A DNA stretch of 64,000 bases from an uncultured Gammaproteobacteria bacterium (GTDB lineage Bacteria; Patescibacteriota; Microgenomatia; UBA1406). Each line of letters opens with the position of its first letter. Position 1 is the first letter of the stretch. The stretch is from the NCBI GenBank assembly GCA_964414145.1, contig CAYPVH010000006.1, positions 16,357 to 80,356 of the forward strand, given 5' to 3'. The notes under the pieces were generated by a model. It was not told the origin of the DNA. It did not search any database and worked only from the letters and a program-made list of their open reading frames with translations. The translations under genes and the position numbers were made by a program. This document shows positions 14,061 through 40,185 of the stretch, one piece after another.

Positions 14061-14064
14061 AAAA

Positions 14065-17540: not shown

Positions 17541-17693
17541 TAAGCGGTTATTGAAAACCACTGAATCACATCTCTTCAAATAATGAAAAATGAAAAATGA
17601 ATGAGGTGTGAGGTGTAGTTTTTAGTAGCCGCTTTTTTTGTTGCTGCTAAAACTTAGAAAGTAAGTGAGTTATTAACAGTTACTAGTTTAAAT

Positions 17694-20366: not shown

Positions 20367-20507
20367 ATTGGCATTATCGTTAGAGAAGGTGAATATATCT
20401 ACTAAGCAACACTTAGCAGTGTGTTTAGTATTGGCCTTGCAATTAACCTATTCATAATTTATTATTGTCATCAGAAATACTCTAATTTAGACTTAGCAAG
20501 AAAGGAG

Positions 20508-20980: not shown

Positions 20981-21000
20981 TGTAAAGACAGTCTTGTGAA

Positions 21001-21033
21001 AAACCGCTCTATAGAAGAGCGGTTTTTCTTCTG
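21001..21033. terminator. Bidirectional rho-independent terminator between convergent genes
   Basis: aaAACCGCTCTatagaaGAGCGGTTtttcttct. Confidence 0.6.
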
Positions 21034-21037
21034 TTTA

Positions 21038-21454
21038 CTACTCACTTATATTTTCATACCGTCCATCTTCATAAGGTGGGTAACAAATCTCATAAGCGGT
21101 TAAACTTGAATCATCATCTGCAAACCATTGCATTGTCTCGTCTATATTAACAATAACACTTATTGGTCTACCATCTGCTATATAAACTGTTTTTCCATTT
21201 ATCTCCAGTCTACCTTTTCCAGAAATATATCCTTCTATTGTTTTATTTCCCTTTAATACTCTCTGGAGTGGAGTATGTTTGCCAGGCGAGATACGAATAA
21301 TACCTAAGTCTCTGCTATTATCTCCTACAAATCTATAAACATCACATTCAACACCATCTATTACTTGAATTGTCTCTATAAATTCTACTGGCAATTCTTG
21401 GCCTTCAAATAGAAATACTTCTATTGGTTTAAATGGAGCTTTTTCTGCTGTCAT
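21038..21454 (-). CDS. Hypothetical small beta-rich protein
   Basis: 138 aa ORF with good start context; no recognisable motif. Confidence 0.4.
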   Translation of the reverse strand: MTAEKAPFKPIEVFLFEGQELPVEFIETIQVIDGVECDVYRFVGDNSRDLGIIRISPGKHTPLQRVLKGNKTIEGYISGKGRLEINGKTVYIADGRPISVIVNIDETMQWFADDDSSLTAYEICYPPYEDGRYENISE

Positions 21455-21556
21455 AAACTTAATTTATCAAATAGTAAGCAATAATACTAACCCAATATAA
21501 TTGAGCAACCAAAATGCATGATATAATATATTGTAGAAGCAAATTTTAAGCATTTA

Positions 21557-21587
21557 TAGCTCCGCTTTTAAGCGGGGCTTTTTTTAA
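21557..21587 (+). terminator. Orphan hairpin plus T-run (terminator-like), not after any called + strand gene
   Basis: aGCTCCGCTTttaAGCGGGGCttttttt; followed by RBS AAAGGAG plus a 52-aa ORF (21615-21773). Confidence 0.4.
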
Positions 21588-22056
21588 TAATTAAATATAA
21601 AGGAGATGAGAAAAATGAAGAAAAATAAAATAGACAGTGAAATTAAAACAAGTTCTTATTTTAAAGAGACAGAAGCATTATTTAATAAGATAGTTATAGC
21701 AGTAAATTCATTAGAGGAAAGAGTAAATATACTAGAATGTAGAGATGAACAAATCCAAGAGCAGGATAAATAAGAAAAAAGTAAATATTCGTAGCAATCT
21801 AAATTCTAACAGACTATATGAGATTGCTACGAATTATTTTGAATATATAAAGTTCTTCATCACTTGACTTCCCAAACCCTTCCGGTATTCTTGGGTTAAA
21901 TGAATGATTACAGTAATCTAAATAAGCATAAGAAGCAATTAATAAAGCTAATAAAAAGATGTGAAAACTACTTCTATAAGTACCTACTTACAGAAGACAA
22001 GGAATACATAGATAAGTTCTTTGCTATATCTGGAAAACTAAAGAGGATAATCCAAT

Positions 22057-23367
22057 ATGATAAACGGAAACAATAACATAAATTACTGTCTTTATGCCAG
22101 AAAGTCATCTGAATCAGATGAAAGACAAGCGATGAGTATAGATGGACAGCTAAAAGAAATGTACTATGTTGCCAAAAAAGAGAAACTAAATATATCAGAT
22201 GTTATTACAGAAAGTCACTCTGCGAAAGAGTCAGGTGAAAGACCAGGCTTTAATCAGTTAATAACAAAAATCACAAAAGGAGATTTTAATGCAGTCCTTA
22301 CTTGGGCACCTGACCGATTAAGCAGAAATGCGGGTGACTTAGGAAGAATAGTGGACCTAATGGATCAACAAAAGTTAGTTCAGATAAGAACTCACTCCCA
22401 ATCATTTAGTAATAATCCTAATGAAAAGTTCCTGCTTATGATTCTCTGTTCTCAAGCCAAACTAGAGAATGATAATAGGGGAATAAATGTTAAACGTGGA
22501 CTCAGAAGTAAATGCGAAGCAGGTATCCGTCCGGGTGTAGCTCCTGTTGGATATATAAATGTACATAAAGAAAATAGAATAGCAACTATTGATATTGATA
22601 AAGAAAGAGCAATGATTATTAAGGAAATGTTTAAGAAAGTTGCAAATCAAGGATATTCCGGACGAATGGTAAAGAAATGGTTAGATAATCTTGGTTTTAG
22701 AACAAAGGGTGGATACAGAATTGCTTTAAGCAAAGTATATACAATACTAAAGAATCCCTTTTACTATGGAGAATTCAAATATGGCGGTAAATGGTATCAA
22801 GGAATTCATGAGCCACTAATTACAAGAAGCCTGTTTGACAAAGTACAGATAGAACTTGAAATAACCCCAAGACAATGGAATAAACAGACATTTCCCTTCA
22901 AAAAACTATGTAAATGTGGCAGCTGTGGTGGTAGTGTAACAGCAGAGATTAAGTACAGAAGAACAAAGAATGGAAAGATTAATACTCATATATATTATCA
23001 CTGCAATAGAATTAAAAAGTATGATTGTAAAGAACCGTATATTAGAGAGGAAGACCTTATTAAACAACTAATATCTTATTTACCTAAACTTAAACTAGAT
23101 ATTAATTACTTATACAGAGAATTTGAAGTAGAAATAAAAAGACTGCAACATTTAAAAGCAACAGTTATTGATAAATATAATCCCTACAATATTCAACTCA
23201 CTCCACATAATACGAGTAGTAACAAAATGAATCTATCTAAAACTGATGTAGTGAAAGACTATGTTTTACACGTTTTAACATATGGTACACCTGAGGAGAG
23301 ATTGAAAATATTGAAAGGAGTGAAAACTAGGTTTTTGCTCTCAAAGAGAAGTCTTAAGACTATCTAA
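22057..23367 (+). CDS. Large serine recombinase (resolvase/invertase-type catalytic domain plus recombinase/Zn-ribbon extension)
   Basis: N-terminal CLYARKSSESDERQAMSIDGQ matches the YAR(V/K)S..Q catalytic-serine motif; 436 aa; Cys cluster CKCGSCGG..YHCNR in the C-terminal region. Confidence 0.75.
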   Translation: MINGNNNINYCLYARKSSESDERQAMSIDGQLKEMYYVAKKEKLNISDVITESHSAKESGERPGFNQLITKITKGDFNAVLTWAPDRLSRNAGDLGRIVDLMDQQKLVQIRTHSQSFSNNPNEKFLLMILCSQAKLENDNRGINVKRGLRSKCEAGIRPGVAPVGYINVHKENRIATIDIDKERAMIIKEMFKKVANQGYSGRMVKKWLDNLGFRTKGGYRIALSKVYTILKNPFYYGEFKYGGKWYQGIHEPLITRSLFDKVQIELEITPRQWNKQTFPFKKLCKCGSCGGSVTAEIKYRRTKNGKINTHIYYHCNRIKKYDCKEPYIREEDLIKQLISYLPKLKLDINYLYREFEVEIKRLQHLKATVIDKYNPYNIQLTPHNTSSNKMNLSKTDVVKDYVLHVLTYGTPEERLKILKGVKTRFLLSKRSLKTI

Positions 23368-23375
23368 GAAAGGTG

Positions 23376-23396
23376 GGGCGGCCTGTGGCCGCCCCT
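23376..23396. repeat. Perfect GC palindrome GGGGCGGCCtgtGGCCGCCCC immediately after the recombinase stop
   Basis: 9-bp arms, no T-run; at the junction with the GC-rich VOC gene. Confidence 0.4.
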
Positions 23397-23405
23397 GTTA
23401 TTGGA

Positions 23406-23831
23406 TCAACCGACACTGATAAACTCAAGCTTAAAAGTAAGCAGCGCCGGAATCTCCACGAACCACTTGGTTCGCTCCTTGTTGGCAGGCTCAATACGAG
23501 CCGTCATACCTGCGAGACCTGCCCACTTTTCCACTTCGTGCGCCGTCAGGTCGGCATCAAAAACCTTTATTCCGAGATGCGCTCCTGGAAGAATTGCCGG
23601 GTCATCAGGGTGACCCAGCTCTTCTGTAAGCTGTACTCGAACTTTTTGGTTCTTGGGCCTTACGAAACGCGCACATCCCCAATCGCCTTCGACCCTTGAT
23701 TCTGTGTCTTCAATCCAACCTAGATGGTTGGTAAAAAAGAACACAGCACCTCGCATCATTCCGGTTCTGACCAGGAAGGCAGCATGGTCAAGACCGGCGC
23801 CTCCAATGAGGCTCCTCAGACTCTGTGTCAT
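23406..23831 (-). CDS. VOC/glyoxalase-bleomycin-resistance-like protein, GC-rich (foreign composition)
   Basis: 141 aa. Local GC clearly above 50% against a ~33% background, which is why several spurious opposite-strand ORFs are predicted here. Gly/His-rich beta-alpha-beta style sequence (HLGIKV.., HAAFLV) consistent with the VOC fold; assignment tentative. Confidence 0.45.
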   Translation of the reverse strand: MTQSLRSLIGGAGLDHAAFLVRTGMMRGAVFFFTNHLGWIEDTESRVEGDWGCARFVRPKNQKVRVQLTEELGHPDDPAILPGAHLGIKVFDADLTAHEVEKWAGLAGMTARIEPANKERTKWFVEIPALLTFKLEFISVG

Positions 23832-23903
23832 CTGACACCTCCTCGTGATTTGGGTTCTTAACCCTATTTTGATTATACCACAAATATTATAGGCTTATAT
23901 TCT

Positions 23904-24055
23904 TAGAACCAAGCACTATTTCTAAAAGAGTTTTTTATGGAGTTTTTCATTCTCTAGGCCGTAAATAGGCTCTTGAAGGAATTATGCATTTTTCTAGCAA
24001 ACCATAAAAGGCCATAGTAAGCAGGTAGTTGGGTCTTGCGAAACTGTTGATAAAA
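23904..24055 (+). repeat. ~152-bp P arm direct repeat, copy 1
   Basis: tagaacca..tttttatggagtttttcattctcta..gttgataaaa is ~92% identical to 25149-25300; ends at core tgcggag. Confidence 0.7.
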
Positions 24056-24093
24056 TGCGGAGCAGTTGGGTCTAGCACCCTCATGTCCTGATA
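24056..24093 (+). repeat. att-like core plus P' arm, copy 2
   Basis: tgcggag + cagttgggtctagcaccctcatgtcctgata. Confidence 0.6.
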
Positions 24094-24145
24094 GTCTAAA
24101 ACAAATTGAACTCACAAAATTTAATAATCTATAATATTAGCAACA

Positions 24146-25099
24146 ATGCAGGAAGAAATAACAACAACACCCGATAACTTTGATGGAGAATTAGATTCAA
24201 AGAATAATGGTGGTGAGACTCAAAAAAGTGACAAGTTAGCTCCTTCAATTGAAAGGGCAAATAATATTCAAAGATATATTGTTACCAGAAATGGCCAGAT
24301 GGTAGAGGTAACATTTGATCAAATGACACAAGAAGAAAAATCGGTTTTTGATGATTCACCAGAACTTGTTCAATTTGATCAAGACCCTTTAATGAACCCT
24401 AGTGGATTTTTTGATTATTTAAAAGTTAAAAATCCTAATTATAAATACGATGATTTAACTTCGCCTGAGATGATTAGGAAAGCAGTGGAATGGGCTCAAG
24501 AAAAGGGATTTGATCCATCTGAACTATCACCTGCGCAAATTCTGCTTTCGCAAGATTATACGCCAGGAACAAAGACTAAAGCTGAAATCGCACAAGAAGT
24601 TATAGAAGAAAGAGTAGAAAGATTACTATCGAAAAAAAAAGAATTGGCTCATATTCTTGTTCCTACCGGAAATAGATATTTTCATGCAACGCCAGACCTA
24701 GATACTGTTAGAGCTATTTTTAAAGAAGGGCTTTACTGTGATAGTAGATTAGGCCTAGATGGATCTGCAGTTCCTCTTGCTTCTTTGCCAGCTGATTCTG
24801 GTGATGCTTCTAGAGATATGATATTAAATCTCAATGTTAGAAAACTTGCAGAACCACATCGAGGACATAGATATGAAGTTATTATAGATTTACCATCTCT
24901 TACTTCACAACAAATGGCTGATTATGAGTCTAGAGCTGCAAATGGCGAAAATGTATCAACTAGCAGTTATTTTGTTGAAACTAGAGATCATGAAGTTGGG
25001 GGAGAAGGTGCTGTAATAACTTATGATGCAACTCTACCTCCAAAATACTTAAAAGGCTATATTGACCTAAATACAGGAGAATATTATCTTAAAGAATAA
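24146..25099 (+). CDS. Hypothetical acidic protein (cargo of satellite element)
   Basis: 317 aa ORF with good ATG; no recognisable motif. Confidence 0.45.
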   Translation: MQEEITTTPDNFDGELDSKNNGGETQKSDKLAPSIERANNIQRYIVTRNGQMVEVTFDQMTQEEKSVFDDSPELVQFDQDPLMNPSGFFDYLKVKNPNYKYDDLTSPEMIRKAVEWAQEKGFDPSELSPAQILLSQDYTPGTKTKAEIAQEVIEERVERLLSKKKELAHILVPTGNRYFHATPDLDTVRAIFKEGLYCDSRLGLDGSAVPLASLPADSGDASRDMILNLNVRKLAEPHRGHRYEVIIDLPSLTSQQMADYESRAANGENVSTSSYFVETRDHEVGGEGAVITYDATLPPKYLKGYIDLNTGEYYLKE

Positions 25100-25148
25100 G
25101 TTATGACTATTAAGATCGTATAATTTAATTAAAATAACTTTCATACAT

Positions 25149-25300
25149 TAGAACCAGACGCTTTTTCTAAACAAGCTTTTTATGGAGTTTTTCATTCTCT
25201 AAGCTGTAGATAGGCTCTTGAAGGAATTATGCAATTTTCTAGCAAACCATATAAGGCCATAATAAGCAGGTAGTTGGGTCTTGTGAAACCGTTGATAAAA
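25149..25300 (+). repeat. ~152-bp P arm direct repeat, copy 2 (abuts tRNA-Ser 3' end)
   Basis: see 23904-24055. Confidence 0.7.
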
Positions 25301-25303
25301 TGC

Positions 25304-25389
25304 GGAGAGGGTGGGATTCGAACCCACGTTCGGCGTTAACCGAAACACGCTTTCGAGGCGTGCGCAATCGTCCGCTCTGCCACCTCTCC
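25304..25389 (-). tRNA. tRNA-Ser (anticodon CGA)
   Basis: minus-strand read GGAGAGG-TG-GCAGAGCGGAC..-CACGC-CTCGAAA-GCGTG-long variable arm TTTCGGTTAACGCCGAAC-GTGGG-TTCGAAT-CCCAC-CCTCTCC-G. 7-bp acceptor stem, canonical T-loop, anticodon loop CU-CGA-AA; CCA not encoded. Confidence 0.85.
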
Positions 25390-29141: not shown

Positions 29142-29347
29142 TTAAATTCACAAAATACTAAAAAGTTACACCATAAAATATCATTCACACACCACACCTA
29201 ACAACTTCAAGGTGATATAAAAAGTATGGCAAAAATTTAATTTTTTGTATACCTAATGTGTCACTTTATCTGTTATATAAGCGACCGTATTTTTTATTGG
29301 AAATAATTACCAATTGTATTTTATAAAAAATTATTTATATTAATAGT

Positions 29348-30829
29348 ATGCACAACCACGATAAAGAAACCAGTAACCAAGAAAAGAGTAAAAAAAACAC
29401 TAAGTTGTTTTTAATAGCGTTTTTATTTATGTTTTTTTTAGTTACAGGCTTTGTTACAGGTATATATTTTGAATCTACAAAAACCGTAACCAAACAGGCC
29501 GGTAACAAAATGCAGTACCAGGCAGTTAATGCCGCTCACGCTTATTCGGTTGCGCTTCTTAAAACACAGGAAGTATTTGAGCTAAAAACAAACCTAAACT
29601 ACAACCAGTGGAGTGCTAAATTAAATGAAGCAATTAATCTTTGGGCAGAAGCAGAAAATGCAACAAAAAAATTGAAAGTTGAAAGTAATAATGTAATTGC
29701 CCAAAGGCAATTAATTGATAAGTACTTAAATAATTACGTTTATGCCTCTTCTGCCCAAGAAATTATTGCAGTATTTGATTCTGCCCCGGCCGGAAAAAAA
29801 CTAAGAACTCTTGCCAAACATTTAGGAACTGATGCAAAAAGAGCCAGATCAATATTAAAAAAAGCCCAAGGAGACATTGATGCCCCCTTCTATAACAACG
29901 AAGAGAAAAGATTGGAAAAACTTGAAAATGTTTGGCGCGGTTTAAAAAGTGGCAGTAAGATTGGTCTGTATGTTGGTGGCACAATATTGTCTGGCGGGGC
30001 AACTTCCACAGCCGGTACTATTCTTGCAGAAGCCGGAGCAATCTTTGGCGGAGTAGATTTGGTCTTGGAAGTTGGTGAAGATGTATCAAATATTGCCTTT
30101 GGTTATAACAGCGAGGCTGTGGCACTGTTTAGCGGAATAAGAAAATTATCAGAACCAACAGCAACAATAATTGGTTTTGGTAATATAGGAGCCTCTTCTA
30201 CATTCGACAAACTAAGTAGCTTTATGTTTGGTGCCGAGCAAATCAATGCAGCAATTCAAGAAAATAAGTATATGGGTTTAGCTATTGACTTTAATAACAT
30301 GGCCGTTAAAGTTGAAGGTTTAAATGAAGGCCAAGCAAAAGCATGGTTAAAAGAGCAAAATATAAGCGAAAACCCAGGCAATCCAGAGTTAATTTTAGCA
30401 AACGTTGAAAATGCTTTGGTAAAAAGCATATCACCTACCCTTTCCCAAAACAAAGATAATACTTTAAGTAACAATGAAAAAGAAGAAGATAACCTAGCAG
30501 TTAAACCCAGTGGTAAGTGCAATATTTTGGGTAAGTGGAAATTAATAACTACAGTTGCTGCAAATAGTACCGTTAATGAAGGCGCCGATTGGGGCGAGGT
30601 ATTTATAGAATTTTTTGAAAACGGAGTATTAACGGCAACCGCACATGTTAATGGTGAAACCGCATCTAACAGCGGCAAATATCGATTTCAAGGTTGTGAA
30701 GGATCAATCGCATCCACAACAGATAACGCTGATAGTAATTTAGTAATTAAAGACGGAAAACTATACCAGTATATAAAAGTTATGGGGACAGGACTGTCTC
30801 ACAAGTGGATTTATGAAAAAGTTAATTAA
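29348..30829 (+). CDS. Hypothetical membrane-anchored extracellular protein
   Basis: N-terminal TM helix LFLIAFLFMFFLVTGFVTGIYF; Gly/Ala-rich middle section; 493 aa. Confidence 0.45.
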   Translation: MHNHDKETSNQEKSKKNTKLFLIAFLFMFFLVTGFVTGIYFESTKTVTKQAGNKMQYQAVNAAHAYSVALLKTQEVFELKTNLNYNQWSAKLNEAINLWAEAENATKKLKVESNNVIAQRQLIDKYLNNYVYASSAQEIIAVFDSAPAGKKLRTLAKHLGTDAKRARSILKKAQGDIDAPFYNNEEKRLEKLENVWRGLKSGSKIGLYVGGTILSGGATSTAGTILAEAGAIFGGVDLVLEVGEDVSNIAFGYNSEAVALFSGIRKLSEPTATIIGFGNIGASSTFDKLSSFMFGAEQINAAIQENKYMGLAIDFNNMAVKVEGLNEGQAKAWLKEQNISENPGNPELILANVENALVKSISPTLSQNKDNTLSNNEKEEDNLAVKPSGKCNILGKWKLITTVAANSTVNEGADWGEVFIEFFENGVLTATAHVNGETASNSGKYRFQGCEGSIASTTDNADSNLVIKDGKLYQYIKVMGTGLSHKWIYEKVN

Positions 30830-31847
30830 AAATTTTGCCTTAACGGTTTTTATTGTGCTTTTGTTTACCACTGCTTTCTTTGGGGGGAAAGCCTTGGGGC
30901 ACTTTGCCTACTACCCTCTTTTTAGTAAACAAGCAACCGTGAATACTGAACCTGTTAAAAATCAAGTTACAAGCAGCAACGCTAAACCAACAATAACCAA
31001 AGCGGTTTCGGAAACGACAACATATACAAATGAAAATTATGGCTTTTCGCTTGAGATGACACGAAATTGGCAAGATTATAAAGCAGAAGAAGAGTTACTT
31101 GGTGGGGTCTTTAATATTGCCGAGGTATATTTTATGTTAGAAAACCAAAAACTATTCTCACTTTCTGTTTTTTTAAAAGAGAGTTGGGAAGAACCGGAAC
31201 GTGACAGATCCAAAGACGACCTGTTTGGAGAAAAAATTGGTGAAAATGATACGTATGTATTTCTATATTCTCACATAAACGGTGACCCTCCCAAAAATGT
31301 TTCTGTTTTGGCAATACAAGATATGAGTAAAATAGCAAGCAGTATTAAAACATTCGCCCCAACAAATTTTGAACCAGATAAGAATGAAGCAACCGAAAAC
31401 GAACTTGAATTGTTAGCTACAGATTACAGAAATAACTCAATCAATTACTGGAATTGTAGTTACCGATATTCACTTTATTACCCGTCTAGTTTTACCAATA
31501 ATGATGCCACTTTTGAATCTAGTAAAGCTGTATTTTCGGGAACTAATATATTTGCGTCGGTTGAAGCCCACACCAGTAGTGAAACACTAACGGATTTTGC
31601 AGATAATACGGTTACTAGAATCGGCGGTGAAATAGTAGACACTAGAAATAAAGAAAGATACGGAACAAAAATAATTGCTTACGAAATGACAAATCCCGAT
31701 ATGGCTTTAATATTTTGGCAAGAGGAACAAAATATAATGGAATTTAGAATTTGGGGTAGTGAATATATAAATAACCAAGACATTGTACAAAACATGATAA
31801 CTACCCTGGAATTTAATGTAGATAATTCAAACTGTAGAGACTTTTAA
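30813..31847 (+). CDS. Hypothetical secreted protein
   Basis: N-terminal signal/TM LTVFIVLLFTTAFFGG; overlaps the upstream gene end. Confidence 0.45.
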   Translation: MKKLIKNFALTVFIVLLFTTAFFGGKALGHFAYYPLFSKQATVNTEPVKNQVTSSNAKPTITKAVSETTTYTNENYGFSLEMTRNWQDYKAEEELLGGVFNIAEVYFMLENQKLFSLSVFLKESWEEPERDRSKDDLFGEKIGENDTYVFLYSHINGDPPKNVSVLAIQDMSKIASSIKTFAPTNFEPDKNEATENELELLATDYRNNSINYWNCSYRYSLYYPSSFTNNDATFESSKAVFSGTNIFASVEAHTSSETLTDFADNTVTRIGGEIVDTRNKERYGTKIIAYEMTNPDMALIFWQEEQNIMEFRIWGSEYINNQDIVQNMITTLEFNVDNSNCRDF

Positions 31848-31913
31848 TTTATATAAAGCCTAATATTAATTAATTAATGCATAGGAAAAGAGCAAATACT
31901 GAAGGTTGTGAAG

Positions 31914-32766: not shown

Positions 32767-32937
32767 TATGAAAAATAATTGCGGGGCCGGAGCCGTATAT
32801 GGCTTGGGCTTTATTGGCGCAGCAATTTACTACATTCAACAAGCCGCCAGTTTTGGTGAAGGTGTGCTAGGTGTGCTGAAGGCACTTGTGTGGCCAGCTA
32901 TGCTGGTACACAAATTGCTTGGATTTTTAGGAATGTA
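32767..32937 (+). CDS. Small hydrophobic Gly/Ala-rich peptide (56 aa), GC-richer than surroundings
   Basis: MKNNCGAGAVYGLGFIGAAIYYIQQAASFGEGVLGVLKALVWPAMLVHKLLGFLGM; below the ORF-track size cutoff; sits at the edge of the repeat region. Confidence 0.3.
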
Positions 32938-32943
32938 GTAAAT

Positions 32944-33156
32944 TAAATTGCTGCATTGCTTCATTGTTACATTGCTAAAGACAATATATAATAGACAATA
33001 TTCAAAATTCATTATAAATGCACAGATGCATTTCTGATTTCTATTACTATTTTCTCATATCCAAAAACTAACTTCTTATTTATTAACTCTAAATTTTCTG
33101 TGATGGGATCCTTCGACTCGTCCGCCGGCTGGCGGACTCGCTCAGGATGACGTGGG
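32944..33156 (+). repeat. Modular MITE-like repeat, copy 1 (iteron block, B-module, GC hairpin module)
   Basis: aaattgct/gcattgct/tcattgtt/acattgct 8-bp tandem repeats; ..ttctattactattttct..ttatttattaact..; GGGATCCTTCGactcGTCCGCCggctGGCGGACtcgctcAGGATGACgtgg. Confidence 0.7.
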
Positions 33157-33221
33157 AATACTTAAACAGGCACATTTCAATACAATTGTGTGTATTTTAT
33201 GTGTATGATATAATTTTTACT

Positions 33222-33956
33222 ATGAGTTTTATTAAGGAGTCACGTCCCTTGCCAATCAATCCGATGGATACAAAAAATCGTGTTTTATATCCATTAATAG
33301 ATACTAGTTGCAAAGCTACTCATCTTACTTCATACAATCCACTTACCACAGAGGTAAGAGTTGTCGATAACGTCGTTATTTGGGCTAAACAACAAATTGA
33401 ATTGGCAAATGGTATTGAAATATTACATATATACGCAGAAAACTGTGAGTTACCAATTGTAGCAACGACAATACATCTACCTGACATGGATGACCTTGGT
33501 ATTTCGGAAATTAGTATTCGGCGTGCTTGTCTGGAAAATGAAGTTCAATTTACAATTTATTTCACAATAAAAATAGATGCTGTGGTAAATGCAACTCAAG
33601 GCACTGCTATACCTTCAACATTGCAAAACCACTGCTGGGGAGTTGCCGTAGATTTAACCGGTAATAAAAGATTTATTTGGAATCAAGACCAGAAAGGTAC
33701 CCCCCTTGCCAACTGTTTTGAAGTATGTGGAAATACACCCCAAGGCAGGCAAGTAAATACACTAATTAGCCACTTTTTACCTGAAATAGAAGAAGAAAAT
33801 GATTATATAACTTTGAACTTTACAACAAACGGACAAGTAATAAAAGTTGTGCTTCCAGTAAAACCTACAGAAACTAAAACTGTTGCCGAAGCAATTTTTA
33901 GTGGAAGGCCAATGGTAGAAAACACTGGAATAAACACACATAAATCTCACCAATAA
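33222..33956 (+). CDS. Hypothetical protein (cassette gene)
   Basis: ORF track starts at 33147 inside the repeat hairpin; the ATG at 33222 is preceded by TATAAT and is the more plausible start (MSFIKESRPL..). Confidence 0.45.
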   Translation: MSFIKESRPLPINPMDTKNRVLYPLIDTSCKATHLTSYNPLTTEVRVVDNVVIWAKQQIELANGIEILHIYAENCELPIVATTIHLPDMDDLGISEISIRRACLENEVQFTIYFTIKIDAVVNATQGTAIPSTLQNHCWGVAVDLTGNKRFIWNQDQKGTPLANCFEVCGNTPQGRQVNTLISHFLPEIEEENDYITLNFTTNGQVIKVVLPVKPTETKTVAEAIFSGRPMVENTGINTHKSHQ

Positions 33957-34031
33957 TATGTCTATAAAAAGTCACATAATAGTAAGTATTAGTCTTACAT
34001 AAAAATTACATATTCCAAATAAAATATAAAC

Positions 34032-34808
34032 ATGGTAGTAGAACAAGAAATTAGTTTAGATCGATATCTAGACACCGTAAGAAACTACGCAAATGGTATT
34101 GTAGTAGAAAGAGATACTTTTTCGGAGTTAAAAAAACTCAGATCTCCAGATAGTCGTTATTACACCTACGTACAGCCGAGTGCAAACGGATTAGGCAACA
34201 CATATATTACTTTGCTAGAAGAAGATGATAGCTTAAGGATCGTCGGAGCAAAACAAACAACCCCATACTGGCCAGGCGCACCTTATTCAGCTGTATATAT
34301 ATATGGTACACATGGTAATGTTTTAGAAGCTTCATTAGTTATTCCAAGAACAAAAGGTGGGTTAACAAACGAGGTTGTTGTTGCCAATCATATAGTTACA
34401 CAAAATAGTGTTAAAAATAGTGTTTTTCTTTCGTTGGCTGACCACTTACAAATATGGGAATTACTTGATTTGGAACAAAAAAAGAGATATCGTGATTCCT
34501 CTTTAATAGGAAGTGGTTGGTACTTAGAAGGTGTAATGGTAGATAATGAAGTAATATGGAAACTATTAAAAATAACAGGAAGGCATAATGTTAAGTTTAA
34601 TATAGGACTCGAAAACCTAGACCGAGCAGGGCTACTTAGCCATTTACCAGAAGTAACTCAAAACGGTGTTGTTTTAAACGTTTTACACACAAGCCCAATT
34701 CAAACAGCAAACATTACCCTTCCAACTGGTACTCCAAATATAAGAGAAGCCATATTAGGTCAAACTCCACTTGTGCCAAACAAGGTTCTAATTACAGGAA
34801 ATGGCTAA
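34032..34808 (+). CDS. Hypothetical protein (cassette gene)
   Basis: 258 aa ORF; no recognisable motif. Confidence 0.45.
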   Translation: MVVEQEISLDRYLDTVRNYANGIVVERDTFSELKKLRSPDSRYYTYVQPSANGLGNTYITLLEEDDSLRIVGAKQTTPYWPGAPYSAVYIYGTHGNVLEASLVIPRTKGGLTNEVVVANHIVTQNSVKNSVFLSLADHLQIWELLDLEQKKRYRDSSLIGSGWYLEGVMVDNEVIWKLLKITGRHNVKFNIGLENLDRAGLLSHLPEVTQNGVVLNVLHTSPIQTANITLPTGTPNIREAILGQTPLVPNKVLITGNG

Positions 34809-34869
34809 TTTATTTCCTTACTACATAAGAATTTTATATTATAAAGGATAATTGCTATACTAGCCCTAT

Positions 34870-36057
34870 ATGAATACACAAATTAAGTGCCCGTATTGCC
34901 ATAAACAATTTGAACCAACAGACGCTTACAAACACGAACTAGAAGAAAAATTATTAAGAGAAGAGCAAGAAAAACACAAAAAAGAACTTGAAAAACTAGC
35001 GGCAGAAAAAGAAGAACTGGCAAAGTCGAGAACTGAAGAAATTGAAAAAATAAAAAAACAAGTAGCCGAAACCGCCAAACAAGAAGCAAAAGAAAACTTA
35101 GACAAAGAATTAAAAGACAAAGAAAACCAAATTCTTTCTTTAAAAAAGCGGGCTGAGGCGGCAGAAGAAATAGAGCTTAAAGTAAGAAAAGAAAAACGTG
35201 AATTTGAAGAGTCGAAACGAAAGTTTGAACTTGAAAAACAAAGACAATTAGATGAGGAGAGGGAAAAAATTAGAGCTAAAGCCACCAAAGAAGCCGAAGA
35301 AGGCCAAGCTTTAAAAATTGCCGAGAAAGATAAAAAACTGTCGGACGCTGAAAAACAGATTCTTGAGTTACAACGAAAGATAAGGCAAGGTTCGCAACAA
35401 ACTCAGGGTGAGGTAATGGAGTTGGAAATTGAAAACATATTACGAGCTGAATTCCCCCTAGATAATATAGTCGAAGTTAAGAAAGGTCAGCGTGGTGCCG
35501 ACATATTGCAAAACGTTGTAGACAAGAAAGGCAGGAAATGCGGTGGTATATTATGGGAAAGCAAGAATGCAAAGTGGAGCCAGGGGTGGATAAGTAAATT
35601 AAAAGAAGACCAACGCCAGGCTAAAGCTCAATTGGCGGTTTTAATTGTAACCAACCCACCAGAAGACATAAAGGGTTTTGTTTTTAGAGAAGGCATTTGG
35701 GTAACTACTTGGAAGTTAGTAGTCCCGCTTGCTATGGCACTAAGATTTAATTTGGTTAATATGTTTCATGAAAAAGCAATTTCGGTAGGTAAAAACGAAA
35801 AAATGGAAGTACTTTACCAATACCTAACCAGCGTTGAATTTAAACACAGAGTTGAGGGTATTGTTGAAGCTTTTGGTTACTTGCAAACAGACATTGAACG
35901 GGAAAAAAGATGGTTTCAGACCAAATGGGCACGCCAAGAAAAAGAACTAAGAAAAGTAATAGATCACACACAGGGAATGTATGGCGACCTTCAGGGCGTG
36001 ATGGGAAGGGCTTTGCCTGAAATAAAATCTTTGGAATTACCAGGAAAAGAAGAATAA
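34870..36057 (+). CDS. DUF2130-like protein (N-terminal zinc ribbon, long K/E-rich coiled coil, C-terminal restriction-endonuclease-like fold domain)
   Basis: N-terminal MNTQIKCPYCHKQF; ~200 aa of EEKLLREEQEKHKKELEK.. coiled coil; C-terminal GQRGADILQNVVDKKGRKCGGILWESKNA. Confidence 0.5.
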   Translation: MNTQIKCPYCHKQFEPTDAYKHELEEKLLREEQEKHKKELEKLAAEKEELAKSRTEEIEKIKKQVAETAKQEAKENLDKELKDKENQILSLKKRAEAAEEIELKVRKEKREFEESKRKFELEKQRQLDEEREKIRAKATKEAEEGQALKIAEKDKKLSDAEKQILELQRKIRQGSQQTQGEVMELEIENILRAEFPLDNIVEVKKGQRGADILQNVVDKKGRKCGGILWESKNAKWSQGWISKLKEDQRQAKAQLAVLIVTNPPEDIKGFVFREGIWVTTWKLVVPLAMALRFNLVNMFHEKAISVGKNEKMEVLYQYLTSVEFKHRVEGIVEAFGYLQTDIEREKRWFQTKWARQEKELRKVIDHTQGMYGDLQGVMGRALPEIKSLELPGKEE

Positions 36058-36063
36058 AAACAA

Positions 36064-36515
36064 AATAAGCACCAAACTTCAAAAAACAATTTCCAAACAA
36101 ATAACAAATCCCAATTTATAAACATCAAGCTAATTAAGAATCTTGGAATTTGTAAATATAAATAGACACATTCTAAATCCGAAGATCGAAATCCACCGAT
36201 TCGGTGGACAGGTCCGAAATAATATTAAAGTACCAAGCACCAAAAAACAAAAACCAAAAAATGTTTCACTGTTACATTGCTTCATTGTTGAAAACTAAAA
36301 CAGAAATCCATTCTCTACTATCTAATTTCTATTACTATTTTCCTGCTTTCTAGAAACTAATTTCTTATTTATAAACTATAAACTTCAAACACAAACCAGT
36401 ATTTTTTCTATTTTAAAACTTTGTTATTTGAATTTGATTTGATGTTTGTGTAATTTGTTATTTGTGAATTTCTTAATTGTTTCGGATTTCGAGTTTGGTG
36501 CTTCGAGTTTTGCAT
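36064..36515 (+). repeat. Modular MITE-like repeat, copy 2, with imperfect terminal inverted A-modules
   Basis: A-module aataagcaccaaacttcaaaaaacaatttccaaacaaataacaaa; hairpin gaaatCCACCGattCGGTGGacagg; iterons tcactgtt/acattgct/tcattgtt; B-module; inverted A-module at 36420-36515 running into the tdk 3' end. Confidence 0.7.
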
Positions 36516-37042
36516 TGCTGAGGATGGCATTTACTACAACACGGGCCATATTTATCGGCTGCACCTAATTCTATTTGTTTTTCCTTAATTACTTTTGAAT
36601 ACGAGTGCTCTGCCCTTTTCCCACAAAAGTCACAAACAGCATATAGTTGAATAAACTCATCAGCTTGTTTTGATAAAGGCAGAGTTGCCCCAAAAGGTTT
36701 TTTGTTACTGTCGTATAAAAGCCCTGCTGCAATAACATTAATCCCTTTTTTTAACAGTTTTTTAATTTGTGGTTTAATAGCACTATATTTAAAAAAATTT
36801 AGCTCGTCAATAAAAACCGATTTTATTTGATTACTTACCGCCGGAAAAACCGGATCTGTACTGTTTAAGTTTACTGCCTTAATTGACTGCCCGTTGTGAG
36901 TAACGCATTTATTGGTGCTATAGCGAGTATCAATATTAGGTTTAAAAAATAAATAGCTTTTGTGGGGTAGTTTGTTGGCAAAATCTATTAAATATGTAGT
37001 TTTACCGGCAAACATTGGTCCACCAATTATTGTTAGCATCAA
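36473..37042 (-). CDS. tdk: Thymidine kinase
   Basis: P-loop GGPMFAGKTT, C-terminal zinc-ribbon Cys pairs (CDFCGKRAEHS..CCSKCH). The last ~13 codons (KTRSTKLEIRNN) are encoded by the inverted A-module of the repeat. Confidence 0.8.
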   Translation of the reverse strand: MMLTIIGGPMFAGKTTYLIDFANKLPHKSYLFFKPNIDTRYSTNKCVTHNGQSIKAVNLNSTDPVFPAVSNQIKSVFIDELNFFKYSAIKPQIKKLLKKGINVIAAGLLYDSNKKPFGATLPLSKQADEFIQLYAVCDFCGKRAEHSYSKVIKEKQIELGAADKYGPCCSKCHPQQCKTRSTKLEIRNN

Positions 37043-37651
37043 ATAATTCTATAACAGCAGAATATATTTTGATAAACTAATTTTTATTAATGAATAATAT
37101 CAGTCACTATTTTTACCCTCTATACCAAAGATTCGAACAAGAATTTTTTGTAACCTTATAAAGGGCGGTAAAAGAAGATTATCATTTTGTTGGTACGAAT
37201 GAGGATAAAGAGTATTTTTTAAAAGCACTGCTCTGTTTTCAGGTTGCTAAAGATTACCGAACTCCACTGGAAGCTGTAAAAAATCATTTATCACCTGAAA
37301 CTGATATCGCCCAAATTAATAAACAGGTAAAAGAGCAAGGTTTTAATATTGATTCTTCTTGGGTCATATGGAGCAGTGATTTAGAACTTATAAAATTAGC
37401 TAAACAAATATATAAATCTAAACTTGATATTAACGGAAGCAGTGCTGAATTTGATGAATTTGTACTTCGCTATTTGATTTCTGCTTGGTTAGTTGCCTGG
37501 CAAGGACCACTTTTTATGATTTTGAAAAATATCATTGGAAACAAGGGTAACGTTAACTTAAAAACACTTAACGGACTGATGAAAAAGTGGGACTTTACTA
37601 ATATATTTAGTTAGTATATACTGATACTATTAGTAGTTTGTATTTTTAAAT

Positions 37652-38770
37652 ATGAAAAGTATAATTTTAGATTCAAAAACAAATTTAGAATTAAGTGGTA
37701 TTAACCGCCAAAAACATATATTCATTAGTGGTTTGCCGGGAAACGGTGTGGCAACTTACGTTTGCAATTTAATTAGCCAAGACGTTGAAAGCAAGCAAAC
37801 AACAATAGTTTTAGATTACTATGGTGACCTTTATAAAAAAGTAAAAAATACCACCAGCTACACTGATAATTTGGGTTATATTAAGCTAGGCGAAAATAAT
37901 TTTTCTTTGAACATCTTTGAAAACGTTGAAACCGAAACAGAAAAAATACTTTTAGTAAAAACTATTCTTGGGCAGTTAAGAAAATTGTTTGATCCACAAA
38001 GTTTAGGAATTATTGGACCACGATTTGAACAAGCAACAAGAAGCGCCATACTGGCAGTACTCTACGACAAAGAACCATCTTTTTTAAAGGTAGTAAAGTG
38101 CTTTACCGATAGCTCATACCTAAATCAATTACTCCTTAAAATTAAAGATCCAATGTTAAAAAATTACTTTGGAAAAGTAAAGGAAGGGCCAATTAGAAAT
38201 AATGACATTGGTGTTTTTATTACTTCTAAATTACTTCCTTTGGTTAGTGACTCAAGGATACAGTTGTTACTGAAAAGCAGCGACTACAGCAGAATTTTAG
38301 AAGAAGTAATTAAAAACAAACAAGCAATTATTTTAGATATGAGTATCTTTAAACACGAGGAAGATATGGAAGAATTTATTTATAGCTTGTTACTTTTTAA
38401 GCTAGAGCAAATTTTACAGAAAGACAAATCGGATAATAAAATTTCTGTTTATGTAGATGAAGTGCAATCTGCAGGGGAGGAATTAGCTAGTCTTTATAGG
38501 TTTAGCGGTAAGTACGGTTTAGCAATAACAGCTATAAGCACAAGGGCTTTACTAATTCCGGAATACTTACAATACGAAATTACCCGATCAGGCACAGTAG
38601 TTAGTTTTAGGCAATCTGTTTATGATAATCATTTTGTTGAAGAGTTGTTTGAAAATGAGGGCATTAAAAATGAAATAAAATTGTTAAACCTGCCGCAATT
38701 TAGTGTTTATATAAAAACACTAAACAATAAAGGCGGAACAAAGATTGAAAGACTAGATTTAAGTAAGTAG
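37652..38770 (+). CDS. P-loop ATPase of unknown function (cassette gene)
   Basis: Walker A-like HIFISGLPGNGVATYVCNL near the N-terminus; 372 aa. Confidence 0.4.
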   Translation: MKSIILDSKTNLELSGINRQKHIFISGLPGNGVATYVCNLISQDVESKQTTIVLDYYGDLYKKVKNTTSYTDNLGYIKLGENNFSLNIFENVETETEKILLVKTILGQLRKLFDPQSLGIIGPRFEQATRSAILAVLYDKEPSFLKVVKCFTDSSYLNQLLLKIKDPMLKNYFGKVKEGPIRNNDIGVFITSKLLPLVSDSRIQLLLKSSDYSRILEEVIKNKQAIILDMSIFKHEEDMEEFIYSLLLFKLEQILQKDKSDNKISVYVDEVQSAGEELASLYRFSGKYGLAITAISTRALLIPEYLQYEITRSGTVVSFRQSVYDNHFVEELFENEGIKNEIKLLNLPQFSVYIKTLNNKGGTKIERLDLSK

Positions 38771-38849
38771 ACATATTTTTATAATCAGTAACAGAACATC
38801 CTTAACGAGCAAAGGATTCCTTTGATAAATTTAAAGTTTAAAGTTAATT

Positions 38850-39012
38850 AATAGAAATTGGTTTCTGGAAATTAGAAAATAGTAATAGAAATTAGATAGT
38901 AGAGAATGGATTACTGCTTTTGTATCTTAATTTATACTTCAAAATTAATCTTTGTTTGTTTATTGTAGTTTGAGATTTGTTTGGAAATTGCTTTTTGGAT
39001 TTTGGTGCTTAT
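38850..39012 (-). repeat. Modular MITE-like repeat, copy 3 (inverted orientation; B- and A-modules)
   Basis: reverse complement of ..ccattctctactatctaatttctattactattttctaatttccagaaaccaatttct.. and of aataagcaccaaaatccaaaaagcaatttccaaacaaatctcaaac. Confidence 0.65.
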
Positions 39013-39268
39013 TTACTTATTCTTATATTCTTAAATTCGCAAATTCATAAATTTTTATTTTTTCGTTTGCTTTTATTTGTATTTTGTTATACCTTATTAA
39101 AATTAATATTTATTTTTAACAATCAAAAATAATAAAAATATTTGCTGCCCAGAGTTTGACCCCAGTTTGTGGAACGAAAAAAAACATATGTGGAAGAATA
39201 AGCTATTTATAAAATCGTCAATTCCGGTATTTTTTCACATTCCCCTACCTTTCCTGGTTGGCAATATA

Positions 39269-39610
39269 ATGACAAAATTATGGAAAACAGCTGAAAAAGC
39301 TGGCGCTACCCCCAGTAAAAATGGCTTTCTCTGCTTAACATACGATCCCAACCCATTTGTAAGTGAATATTACATGCATGTAACCAAAGAAGTATCAGAC
39401 ATAAAAAATGTTAAACTTTCGGGTGAATTTATTAGCAAAGTTTATGATGGACCATTCAGTGAAGTTAATAATTGGTTAAAAGATATGACCGGTTATATTG
39501 AATCGCTTGGCAAAAATGTTTACCGAAATTTTTTATACTTTACCACTTGCCCCGAATGTGCCAAAAAATACAAGCATAATTATGTTGTGGTAGTAACTGA
39601 GACGGAATAA
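39269..39610 (+). CDS. Hypothetical protein (cassette gene)
   Basis: ORF track starts at 39167; the ATG at 39269 directly follows a TATAAT and gives MTKLWKTAEKAG.. (a leaderless start is plausible). Confidence 0.4.
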   Translation: MTKLWKTAEKAGATPSKNGFLCLTYDPNPFVSEYYMHVTKEVSDIKNVKLSGEFISKVYDGPFSEVNNWLKDMTGYIESLGKNVYRNFLYFTTCPECAKKYKHNYVVVVTETE

Positions 39611-39666
39611 ATTGCTACATTGTTAAATTGTTAAAAGTAAGAGTTATGATTTATGAGTTAAGAGAA

Positions 39667-40073
39667 ATAAGCACCAAGATCCAAAAAACCCCACTTCGCC
39701 AATGCTTCGAGGGGCAGGTAATTTCCAAACAAATATCAAACTACAAATAACAAACAAAGGTAGGAATTTAAGAATTTGTATTATGTCATATTGAACGCTA
39801 GTGAAATATCCCATGGGATCCTTCGGTTACTTCGCTCCCTCGAGGATGACATATAAAGATCCTATGGGATTCCCGCCAAAGGCGGGCAAGTCCTCCGAAT
39901 CGGAGGGCAGGCTTCTGTTAAATCAGAATGACTAGTTAAATTGCTAAATTGCTGCATTGTTCCATTGTTTCATTGTTGAAAACAAAAACAGAAATCCATT
40001 CTCTACTTTCTTATTTCTATTACTATTTTCTAATTTCCAGAAACCAATTTCTAATTTATTAACTGTGAATTTT
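39667..40073 (+). repeat. Modular MITE-like repeat, copy 4 (A-module, ~110-nt GC-rich multi-hairpin module, iteron block, B-module)
   Basis: hairpins CCCATGGGATCCTT..AAGATCCTATGGG enclosing CCTCGAGG, then CCCGCCaaaGGCGGG, then CCTCCGaaTCGGAGG; iterons aaattgct/aaattgctg/cattgttc/cattgttt/cattgttg. Confidence 0.7.
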
Positions 40074-40185
40074 AAATTATTAATTTTAATTTAACTACTT
40101 ATCAGATATTTATAATAGCTCTACCCTTTCAGGTAAAAGTTGTTTATGTACCACTGGTCACATTTTATGGTAAAATTCTGCTTCT

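Follow-up and report, generated by a model that had tools for sequence, protein, structure and literature searches.

Between 32.9 and 40.1 kb of a 64,000-nt window from a Roizmanbacteria-like genome (the window being the whole stretch of DNA analysed), small gene sets are bracketed by repeats, and we wondered what these repeats are. A sequence-only reading had described four copies of a modular, MITE-like composite in both orientations, and had offered mobile elements, cassette recombination sites, iterons and small RNAs as possible roles. Our analysis makes it probable that the region holds three decayed, mutually nested selfish palindromic insertion elements of a type typical of Patescibacteria (CPR). 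It also links the family of module B to an IVS-like, PF05635-encoding element living outside rRNA, a connection to ORF-carrying parent elements that the earlier reading overlooked.

The modules are real and far above chance. Scanning the window for the B core ATTTCTATTACTATTTTC with up to three mismatches returned 5 sites against 0.34 expected, four of them exact: 33037(+), 36325(+), 38875(-) and 40013(+). Module A was found at 36064(+), 38992(-) and 39666(+) against 0.04 expected, with a degenerate inverted form, A', at 36400-36515; the 8-bp array pattern matched 12 times against 3.1 expected. The GC-rich hairpins likewise match their description, and the account of a modular, MITE-like family in both orientations holds. 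TRF delimited period-8 arrays at 32947-32977, 36262-36289, 39608-39635 and 39937-39977; a fifth 8-mer array, that at 39608-39635, was absent from the earlier description. The arrays comprise 2-4.5 units, a number that differs between strains, and a periodicity of 7-8 nt extends beyond them through A, A' and B. All repeat modules are confined to 32.9-40.1 kb, and profile searches of the remaining 57 kb of the window revealed no additional B arms. Artefacts of assembly can be dismissed for copies 1 and 2, since an independently assembled JGI contig, L081, matches 32793-36800 with 99.95% identity. From left to right, the features are:

32946..32977, + strand: 8-bp tandem array 1, ~3.9 units, immediately after the stop of a 56-aa ORF
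33031..33097, + strand: B arm of copy 1, solo, pyrimidine-rich and heptad-periodic (nhmmer, 28 bits)
33103..33149, no strand: GC-rich hairpin GGGATCCTTCG..GTCCGCCggctGGCGGAC..CTCAGGATGAC (sequence and folding)
36064..36125, + strand: A arm of copy 2, C/A-rich and periodic, the left terminal inverted repeat (module scan, duplex folding)
36193..36207, no strand: GC mini-hairpin CCACCGattCGGTGG; a partial A copy comes after it, at 36235-36257
36262..36289, + strand: 8-bp tandem array 2, ~3.5 units (pattern scan, TRF)
36294..36386, + strand: B arm of copy 2, nested inside the loop of the A/A' hairpin (core scan, profile search)
36400..36515, + strand: A' arm, G/T-rich and 7-nt periodic, the right terminal inverted repeat of copy 2 (duplex, TRF)
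38822..38930, - strand: B arm of copy 3, the outer left arm of a 1.26-kb palindrome (inverted repeat of 102 nt, 82% complementary)
38945..39030, - strand: A arm (A' on the + strand), the inner left arm of the palindrome (inverted repeats, stem folding)
39167..39610, + strand: Bact_hydrolase (PF20603) ORF in the loop of the nested stems (Pfam)
39608..39635, + strand: 8-bp tandem array, ~3.5 units, immediately 3' of the hydrolase stop
39665..39760, + strand: A arm of copy 4, the inner right arm of the palindrome (module scan, stem folding)
39805..39912, no strand: three GC-rich hairpins, the earlier small-RNA candidate (-52.8 kcal/mol, z -4.5)
39937..39977, + strand: 8-bp tandem array, ~4.5 units (pattern scan, TRF)
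39982..40083, + strand: B arm of copy 4, the outer right arm of the palindrome (core scan, profile search, folding)

Folding showed how these modules are assembled. Copy 2 is an A/A' hairpin enclosing B; its A2 x A2' duplex (-45.7 kcal/mol, z -7.4) confirms the proposal that A forms terminal inverted repeats around this copy, and its A' arm overlaps the final ~14 codons of tdk. The coordinates of the four copies were correct, but copies 3 and 4 belong together: each supplies one half of a single palindrome, 38822-40085, in which a B':B stem (-112 kcal/mol, z -19.6) and, nested within it, an A':A stem (-85 kcal/mol, z -13.3) surround the hydrolase ORF. Previously listed as a 114-aa protein among genes of unknown function, this ORF belongs to Bact_hydrolase in Pfam; its ancestral ATG is now ATC at 39122. 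The A arm of copy 4 is broken at ~39689-39718 by a GC-rich insert, CCCCACTTCGCCAATGCTTCGAGGGG, which has a near-identical counterpart in L015. The GAGCGAGTCC..GGACGAGTCGA motif of the 33103..33149 hairpin likewise recurs in L009 with a different apical stem, and pieces of the three-hairpin module at 39805..39912 are found separately as inserts within other elements in L015, L009, L007 and L036. A/A' is a second arm family in the same style as B; arms and loops carry insertions of accessory modules, namely 8-mer arrays and GC-rich mini-hairpins, in varying number.

Other genomes show B to be an arm of a hairpin, ~130 nt long and composed of 7-nt (heptad) repeats, of which Patescibacteria contigs have ~100 copies. 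Its 22-nt core (21 specified bases) turned up in MAGs of Nealsonbacteria, Liptonbacteria and other Patescibacteria, as well as in 67 metagenome contigs; no viral contig matched. Conservation of this core is biased by our having fetched loci with the exact 22-mer. An 18-nt core is invariant among copies otherwise 11-39% diverged. Profile searches yielded 156 arm matches in 76 sequences, with up to three hairpins per 5-10 kb. The canonical hairpins fold at -40 to -58 kcal/mol, with a stem of ~50 pairs and one mismatch per heptad. They sit between protein genes in either orientation (17 versus 19 relative to flanking genes) and fill stop-to-start spacers in rplX-rplE, rpsQ-rplN-type, pilB-pilC and rpsG-fusA operons. 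Near-identical A-B-A' elements occupy three unrelated contexts in one metagenome (L017, L024 and L075), while the pyrimidine arm occurs without its partner in L032, in L025, in L054-type copies and in the window. On one strand the stem prefers G:U over A.C (~107 versus 8 cells), and double compensatory changes are nearly absent (1/40 pairs). Rfam covariance models gave no RNA family match at or near gathering score, the hairpin module of copy 4 included, and probes for conserved 16S, 23S and 5S motifs were negative for every locus and for the window. This heptad-periodic family is apparently undescribed so far.

The origin of the family is suggested by longer elements with the same arms. In L025 (to which L055 is identical) and L054, the only two independent full-length elements recovered, inverted arms of 60-65 nt, separated by 388 nt, flank a 134-aa PF05635/TIGR02436 ORF (E 4e-16), whose start codon is within one arm and whose stop codon is within the other. 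The G:U-preferring strand is antisense to this ORF and has no relation to the direction of flanking genes. Eighteen short hairpins retain ...aatagaaattagaaaATGGAAAAT(A/G)GT, and most go on (T/G/C)AC TAA TTTCTAATTTCC; these remnants correspond to the first four codons, and the last codon and stop, of the PF05635 ORF. Because the end codons of the ORF are kept, the short hairpins appear to derive, by loss of the ORF, from an IVS-like element that lives outside rRNA; the direction of change could also be the reverse, with an ORF captured into a hairpin loop. Rfam found no rRNA on L025, L054 or L055, and the window contains no PF05635 gene.

Comparison of orthologous sites showed that insertions are polymorphic. 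The rpsG-fusA spacer is empty in L013, occupied by a hairpin in L066 (flanks 87-92% identical) and by a different palindrome in L034; the rplI site is filled in L012, L050 and L032 and empty in L074, and the dnaJ site is filled in L074 and empty in L050. Neither at these three filled/empty pairs nor at window copy 2 was a target-site duplication seen at the repeat ends, with flanks of 75-92% identity in which very short duplications could be hidden, and the elements have no associated transposase or known mobility enzyme. Lineages whose flanking genes are only 65-78% identical share 90-95% identity in the element at the rplI site; an old insertion evolving neutrally would not be expected to be so conserved, which suggests selection, gene conversion or insertion more than once.

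Within the window, the 32.9-40.1 kb region is itself strain-variable. In a relative with 85-87% identical marker proteins, copies 1 and 2 are lacking, copy 4 has decayed and the genes beside them are different, while conserved neighbours are unchanged where its copies are missing or eroded. Copy 1 and two ORFan genes are replaced there by unrelated genes, and homology with its contig L082 stops at 32950, within the first unit of array 1. L082 also lacks the block 36058-36413 (copy 2, ~355 nt) and shares the A' arm at 36400..36515 with ~80% identity. In L078, synteny starts at 39006, inside the A arm at 38945..39030, and the B core of copy 4 is missing in what reads like a 41-nt deletion. The two ~260-aa proteins of the region are at best very distant paralogues (E 0.001), and one is an ORFan. 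The relative's contig ends beside one such hairpin.

The designation of this stretch as a cassette region was right in part: gene content switches at repeat edges (32950, 36045/36414 and 39006), and the relative's different genes adjoin copies 1 and 3. It did not hold for the mechanism, since two further gene-content differences nearby have repeat-free junctions, the genes that the relative has instead are likewise free of repeats, and the ORFs of 29-45 kb include no integrase or recombinase by Pfam and no transposase. The window has only one recombinase, of the large serine type; it is encoded at 22-23.4 kb, 10 kb from the repeats, next to a tRNA and an RM island. In this variable region the repeats appear to be passengers or substrates of recombination rather than a dedicated cassette system.

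The reading that we favour combines these observations as follows. The B family has the architecture of ORF-containing rRNA IVSs, yet is placed between protein-coding genes; the copies in this genome occupy a strain-variable accessory segment in which they are gained, lost and eroded, marking rearrangement breakpoints that they may also promote. When co-transcribed, the long stems would presumably be RNase III substrates, as in classical IVS stems; if cut, the hydrolase mRNA would therefore be released from a longer transcript. Spread would have followed a route leaving no target duplication, possibly involving the four-helix-bundle protein.

Could the hairpins instead be cis-acting RNA elements selected by the host, serving in polycistronic mRNAs as processing sites, 3' or 5' stabilisers or translation couplers, with the window copies acting as regulatory UTR elements? 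The conserved rplI element, the pairing maintained through G:U on one strand and the occupied operon spacers are what such a role would predict, as is the L074 hairpin between the Shine-Dalgarno sequence and AUG of dnaJ, whose folding would bring the two together. We nevertheless consider this unlikely, in view of the random orientation to flanking genes, the single compensated pair in 40, the survival of solo pyrimidine arms, the spacer that is empty, filled or occupied by an unrelated palindrome among close relatives, and the loss or erosion of the window copies in a relative whose neighbouring conserved genes are unchanged. The 7-8-nt units might alternatively be iteron-like or other arrayed binding sites for a protein of replication, partition, nucleoid organisation or DNA uptake, the hairpin potential being secondary. 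Strict periodicity across A, A', B and the 8-mer arrays, the invariant core and a conservation of sequence beyond pairing fit this idea, which is improbable all the same: no rep, par or dnaA gene is adjacent, the GC-skew turn (minimum) lies at ~17 kb, away from the repeats and inside an RM island that accounts for it, unit number varies freely among close strains, units spaced by 7 nt do not keep phase with the DNA helix, and other genomes carry up to one element per 2-5 kb within operons, including ribosomal-protein operons.

Dedicated site-specific recombination sites of an integron-attC-like system that swaps small gene sets would explain strain differences exactly at repeat edges, imperfect palindromes like those of attC, and bracketed genes that are ORFan or accessory. 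The repeat-free alternative genes and indels, the want of an integrase among the 29-45 kb ORFs and the presence of the same elements in core ribosomal operons of other genomes make this very improbable; integrons further differ in having an integrase and an array organisation, neither of which is seen here. Scarcely credible, finally, is the suggestion that the ~110-nt GC-rich module of copy 4, or modules like it, is an independent small-RNA gene. Its three hairpins are stable, and 0/200 shuffles equal them, but the orthologous spacer of L078 is without the module, relaxed thresholds in Rfam produced no match, promoter and terminator signal is not above shuffles, its pieces recur separately in other elements, and both strands fold nearly equally well.

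Among known systems, IVSs are close in design. The Coxiella IVS is a 428-nt selfish element, excised by RNase III, whose terminal inverted repeats form a stem; its loop contains an S23p four-helix-bundle ORF, preceded upstream by tandem heptamers that vary between strains (PMC4990558); rRNA genes of CPR bacteria contain insertions with 23S_rRNA_IVP ORFs as well as many short ORF-less insertions at IVS sites (PMC11270868). As in the IVSs of Coxiella burnetii and Leptospira (PMC4990558) and the insertions of CPR rRNA genes (PMC11270868), terminal inverted repeats here form a long stem, with a PF05635 ORF in the loop in L025/L055 and L054; tandem 7-nt repeats of strain-variable number adjoin the ORF, short versions are ORF-less, and both kinds of element are regarded as selfish and horizontally spread. 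In contrast to IVSs, which reside in helix 25 or 45 of 23S rRNA, all ~100 copies here lie between protein-coding genes and none in rRNA; the arms are 60-65 nt and wholly heptad-periodic, versus a 28-bp stem in Coxiella; and each genome has several copies of the family, which are nested and modular. In the window, the stems are without an IVP gene, one unit carrying the hydrolase instead and the others no ORF, and RNase III cleavage would here be expected by analogy.

Pneumococcal BOX elements (PMC3049150) are also modular composites whose end modules pair and whose internal tandem module varies between strains; they cluster with RUP and SPRITE, elements inserting into each other, are co-transcribed with their neighbours and leave no clear target-site duplication in the flanks. 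The likeness is in design only; no sequence relationship is apparent and the phylum is another. No parent of BOX that carries an ORF in this manner is known, and here the arms themselves are 7-nt repeats. Correia elements of Neisseria and ERIC are, like ours, small, AT-rich, intergenic, palindromic, multi-copy MITEs with strain-specific insertions, and their transcribed hairpins are cut by RNase III (Correia) or RNase E (ERIC), altering neighbour expression (PMC10969869, PMC2649163). They differ in having defined IS-related terminal repeats and target-site duplications; we found neither a duplication nor a transposase partner, and the putative parent encodes a four-helix-bundle protein. The term MITE fits the base-paired terminal inverted repeats, the small AT-rich non-coding body and the dispersed copies with presence/absence polymorphism, but not the want of target-site duplications or of a transposase-encoding IS parent, the longer form with matching arms encoding PF05635. 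RAYT-mobilised REP/BIME/REPIN sequences (PMC3116915) are short, GC-rich, dispersed extragenic hairpins without target duplication, and the GC mini-hairpins of the window are REP-like in form; here, however, GC hairpins are inserts within larger AT-rich palindromes and are heterogeneous in sequence. TIGR arrays, in which tandem ~36-nt units (edge, spacer A, loop, spacer B) stand beside a Nop-domain Tas protein (PMC12045711), were rejected: the units here are 7-8 nt, and the region has no Tas-like protein.

For the window itself the result is modest: a strain-variable accessory segment with eroded selfish palindromes, and no new recombination or replication system. More broadly, CPR genomes, usually called streamlined, carry an abundant heptad-periodic hairpin family between and inside operons. 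It connects three subjects that are little understood, namely bacterial IVS elements, the very common yet functionless four-helix-bundle/23S rRNA IVS proteins and the short ORF-less insertions of CPR rRNA genes, which become jointly testable. In organisms not yet cultured, these hairpins probably interrupt assemblies, give rise to spurious small ORFs and affect mRNA processing.

A bolder idea, which we put forward tentatively and think doubtful, is that PF05635 IVS proteins, relatives of the DGR protein Avd, serve as the factor encoded by a separate class of palindromic mobile elements that do without a transposase. Elements of this class would settle in rRNA genes, as classical IVSs, and equally in intergenic spacers in CPR, shedding ORF-less hairpins as IS shed MITEs; the protein would bind to the heptad arms as an array of sites, and the bias of G:U pairing to one strand would mark the strand used. 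If true, this would give a concrete origin and function to rRNA IVSs and S23p proteins; IVS function and origin were still termed unclear in 2016, >25 years after their discovery (PMC4990558). L025 additionally carries a second, distant four-helix-bundle gene with its own periodic inverted arms and a GC-hairpin insert.

Motif scans and TRF place four composite repeats between 32944 and 40073, where the sequence-only reading had put them. The 18-nt core of the B arm (ATTTCTATTACTATTTTC) occurs exactly at 33037, 36325 and 40013 on the forward strand and at 38875 on the reverse strand, and a scan allowing up to three mismatches gave five sites against 0.34 expected; the A module occurs three times (0.04 expected), with a degenerate inverted A copy at 36400-36515, and the pattern CATTGYTN matches 12 times (3.1 expected). 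TRF resolved A, A' and B themselves into 7-8-nt units, and the following arrays lie among them:

32947-77, period-8 array (TRF)
36262-89, period-8 array (TRF)
39608-35, period-8 array (TRF)
39937-77, period-8 array (TRF)
39019-39057, further 8-nt tandem array, ATTCTTAA, 4.9 units, between the A arm of copy 3 (A3) and the hydrolase gene

Profile searches found no other B arms in the 64 kb, and no comparable local hairpins occur elsewhere in the window. An assembly artefact is excluded, because 32793-36800 is reproduced at 99.95% identity in an independent JGI assembly (L081).

Re-reading these repeats as folds changed their count. Copies 3 and 4 are one palindrome, 38822-40085, in which an outer B':B stem (-112 kcal/mol, z -19.6) and an inner A':A stem (-85 kcal/mol, z -13.3) are nested around a hydrolase ORF; this is the design of an rRNA intervening sequence (IVS) with a different cargo. 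In copy 2 (36064-36515), A and A' pair as a hairpin (-45.7 kcal/mol, z -7.4), and its loop is occupied by a B arm together with an 8-mer array and a GC hairpin. Copy 1 consists of a solo B arm, an 8-mer array and a GC hairpin. The idea that the 8-mer arrays serve as A' by pairing with A was rejected, the duplexes being weak (z -0.5 to -3.5).

The B arm belongs to a family found in other Patescibacteria. An exact-match scan with a 22-nt B pattern (21 specified bases) found it in MAGs of Nealsonbacteria, Liptonbacteria and other Patescibacteria and in 67 metagenome contigs, for the most part from groundwater, and not in the viral contigs scanned; retrieval by an exact 22-mer biases the apparent conservation of the core. 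In the matched loci B is the pyrimidine-rich arm of a hairpin of ~130 nt whose opposite arm is built of purine-rich GAAATTG/GAAAATG/GTAATGG heptads, and a profile search counted 156 arms in 76 sequences, with at most three hairpins per 5-10 kb. Variants include a complete nested A-B'-B-A' palindrome, an A-B-A' form without the purine arm (the design of copy 2), solo and tandem B arms, and arms interrupted by GC-rich mini-hairpins; on one contig (L046, 444-553 and 1676-1784) the B arms stand in head-to-tail tandem pairs rather than hairpins. The arm insert CACTTCGCCAATGCTTCG is common to contig L015 and copy 4, and the window's GAGCGAGTCC...GGACGAGTCGA hairpin recurs in L009, where its apical stem differs and an 8-mer array comes next, immediately ahead of rplE. 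Since inserts, hairpins and arrays recur in these and other loci, all the modules named in the sequence-only reading are reusable building blocks of CPR intergenic DNA. L009 (CAYJQQ010000054.1) is labelled a Gammaproteobacteria MAG, and with a CPR-type B arm, GC hairpin and 8-mer array in its ribosomal-protein operon, this contig may be mis-binned.

Both arms follow one heptad architecture with a conserved ATTAC centre, each in its own flavour, and for this reason every heptad brings one mismatch into their pairing and G:U pairs are frequent; one strand consequently folds better than the other (for example -41.9 versus -25.6 kcal/mol), with ~107 G:U cells versus 8 A.C cells in the stem. Compensatory changes are almost absent because the hairpin sequence hardly varies: with double changes in 1 of 40 pairs among near-invariant sequences, covariation is uninformative as proof of RNA structure. 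Relative to co-directional flanking genes the hairpins are randomly oriented (17 versus 19); a strand-specific role in mRNA, as leader or terminator, therefore cannot account for the strand bias and is rejected.

In the comparison contigs L025 (identical in L055) and L054, a 134-aa ORF lies between inverted arms that are 60-65 nt long and stand 388 nt apart; the ORF matches PF05635 23S_rRNA_IVP at 59 bits (cut-off 33.8) and also the four-helix-bundle family TIGR02436, with a weak match to Avd. These are the only two independent full-length elements recovered, and their proteins are 80% identical. Arm and ORF overlap at both ends: the inner end of the B arm, read as its reverse complement, supplies the ATG and first codons (ATGGAAAATAGT), and the other arm opens with the stop (GAC TAA TTTC...). 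The start-codon context is kept in 18 short hairpins, most of which run on with (T/G/C)AC TAA TTTCTAATTTCC, so that, from their sequence, the short hairpins look like the long element minus the interior of its ORF. In canonical hairpins at all loci, the G:U-stabilised strand runs antisense to the four-helix-bundle ORF that the full-length element carries, and it shows no relation to the direction in which neighbouring genes lie. L025 also holds a second four-helix-bundle gene (34% identical), flanked by another family of periodic inverted repeats with a GC-hairpin insert, and a weak relative adjoins the B element in the Nealsonbacteria loci. Rfam found no rRNA in L025, L054 or L055, and a probe scan found no conserved 16S, 23S or 5S motifs in any locus.

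The IVS of Coxiella is a 428-nt 'selfish' element whose terminal inverted repeats form an RNase III-cut stem and whose loop carries an S23p four-helix-bundle ORF preceded by tandem heptamers whose number varies between strains; the element has been hypothesised to have arisen by transposition (PMC4990558). Insertions in CPR 16S and 23S genes carry 23S_rRNA_IVP ORFs, and many short, ORF-less insertions occupy IVS sites (PMC11270868). Our literature search found no description of such elements dispersed between protein genes, nor of these hairpins, whose nearest functional analogues are the modular pneumococcal BOX elements and the Correia/ERIC MITEs. By analogy with IVS and Correia elements, the stems, when transcribed, would be RNase III substrates, and their cleavage would alter the processing and stability of neighbouring mRNAs.

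The elements are polymorphic at orthologous sites. The rpsG-fusA spacer, with gene identities confirmed, is empty in L013, where it measures 15 nt, holds the heptad hairpin in L066, between flanks 87-92% identical, and contains an unrelated palindrome in L034 (~4830-4940, with GCGAATTC-type arms). Three lineages carry the element at the site upstream of rplI, which is empty in L074; L074 carries one upstream of dnaJ, where the site of L050 is empty. No target-site duplication is visible in the filled/empty pairs at rpsG-fusA, rplI and dnaJ, and near-identical A-B-A' elements occur in three unrelated contexts within one metagenome. Between lineages with 65-78% identity in the flanks of the rplI site, the element itself reaches 90-95%, and in L032 the B arm persists there without its partner, both of which count against simple neutrality. 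In L066, the 3' end of rpsG is repeated in a 76-nt insert (~2790-2865) that carries a GC hairpin (CCCGCACC...GGTGCGGG), so the insertion has rebuilt the end of the gene; in L025, one arm of the second four-helix-bundle element holds a similar GC hairpin. The L074 hairpin (3872-4004) separates the dnaJ Shine-Dalgarno sequence (AAGGAGAAA) from its ATG, and its predicted folding would rejoin the two, an arrangement resembling the split ribosome-binding site of phage T4 gene 38.

A relative, represented by two contigs from one JGI sample (L078 and L082), has DnaG 85% and SNase 87% identical to the window's and shares DNA at ~80-88%. Homology stops at 32950, within the first 8-mer of copy 1, and in place of 32950-34852 (copy 1 and two genes) the relative has two unrelated genes. 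The relative lacks the 355-nt core of copy 2, sharing its right terminal inverted repeat (A2') and the thymidine kinase gene (tdk); it lacks the GC-hairpin module of copy 4, and that copy's B core is gone, as if 41 nt had been deleted between TCTTATTT and TCTAATTT. Synteny begins at 39006, inside A3, and the gene to the left of this point differs. The earlier description of a cassette region holds in part, in that the region is strain-variable at repeat edges, but two further nearby indels lack repeats at their borders, and L082, the left-hand contig of the relative, contains none of the modules; the repeats therefore participate in what is a hot spot of change, but that change does not require them. 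L082 lacks a 2.65-kb segment (29266-31913) with two genes for apparently secreted proteins (493 and 344 aa): GH130 and SNase are adjacent there, with no repeats at the junctions. A seemingly compensatory change in the GGGATYCTTCG..CAGRATGAC hairpin between window and L078 was discounted, the L078 version not being predicted to fold.

Other roles proposed for the repeats fared less well. An iteron-type replication or partition site would call for a Rep or Par gene, and no such gene, transposase or integrase lies around the repeats; the cumulative GC-skew minimum falls at ~17 kb, where gene orientation switches within a restriction-modification (RM) island, which removes it as a sign of an origin near the repeats. 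A known RNA family for the hairpin module found no support in Rfam, which at gathering and relaxed thresholds returned only tRNAs and chance matches to microRNA-precursor families in the window and complete-hairpin loci. Promoter and terminator consensus scans over 32.6-40.6 kb gave nothing above shuffles, and TIGR-Tas arrays, the only CPR repeat system in our literature search, do not fit in architecture. A phage or defence origin of the bracketed genes was rejected, PHROGs and PADLOC giving no relevant match. The RM/defence island itself (10557-25389; Eco57I/MmeI-type enzyme, PLD-helicase, ParB-N6/N4 methylase) is probably an integrated element, since it has a large serine recombinase (22051-23361) near tRNA-Ser (25302-25389).

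DnaG, RpoD and RecF are encoded directly downstream of the repeats, and the closest named homologues of DnaG are from Candidatus Roizmanbacteria (Microgenomates), at ~53% identity. Between the repeats lie genes for a 56-aa membrane peptide, two Pfam-less proteins, DUF2130, thymidine kinase, a degenerate P-loop ATPase, Bact_hydrolase and a 94-aa protein, together with a start-less frame of ~150 codons. One Pfam-less protein (258 aa, 34032-34808) is an ORFan without homologue among 5.8 billion proteins, its sole match being its own sequence in a further assembly of the strain. The start-less frame (37162-37614, no ATG, GTG or TTG start), just upstream of the P-loop ATPase, is probably a gene remnant. 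The Bact_hydrolase start, ATG in L078, is ATC in the window (39122-39169), where the first canonical start, TTG at 39167, costs ~18 Pfam-domain residues, the CCPxFDP stretch among them; the gene may use a rare start codon or be in decay. At 36473-36515 the A' repeat arm encodes the last ~14 codons of thymidine kinase, and the relative has this arm at ~80% identity.
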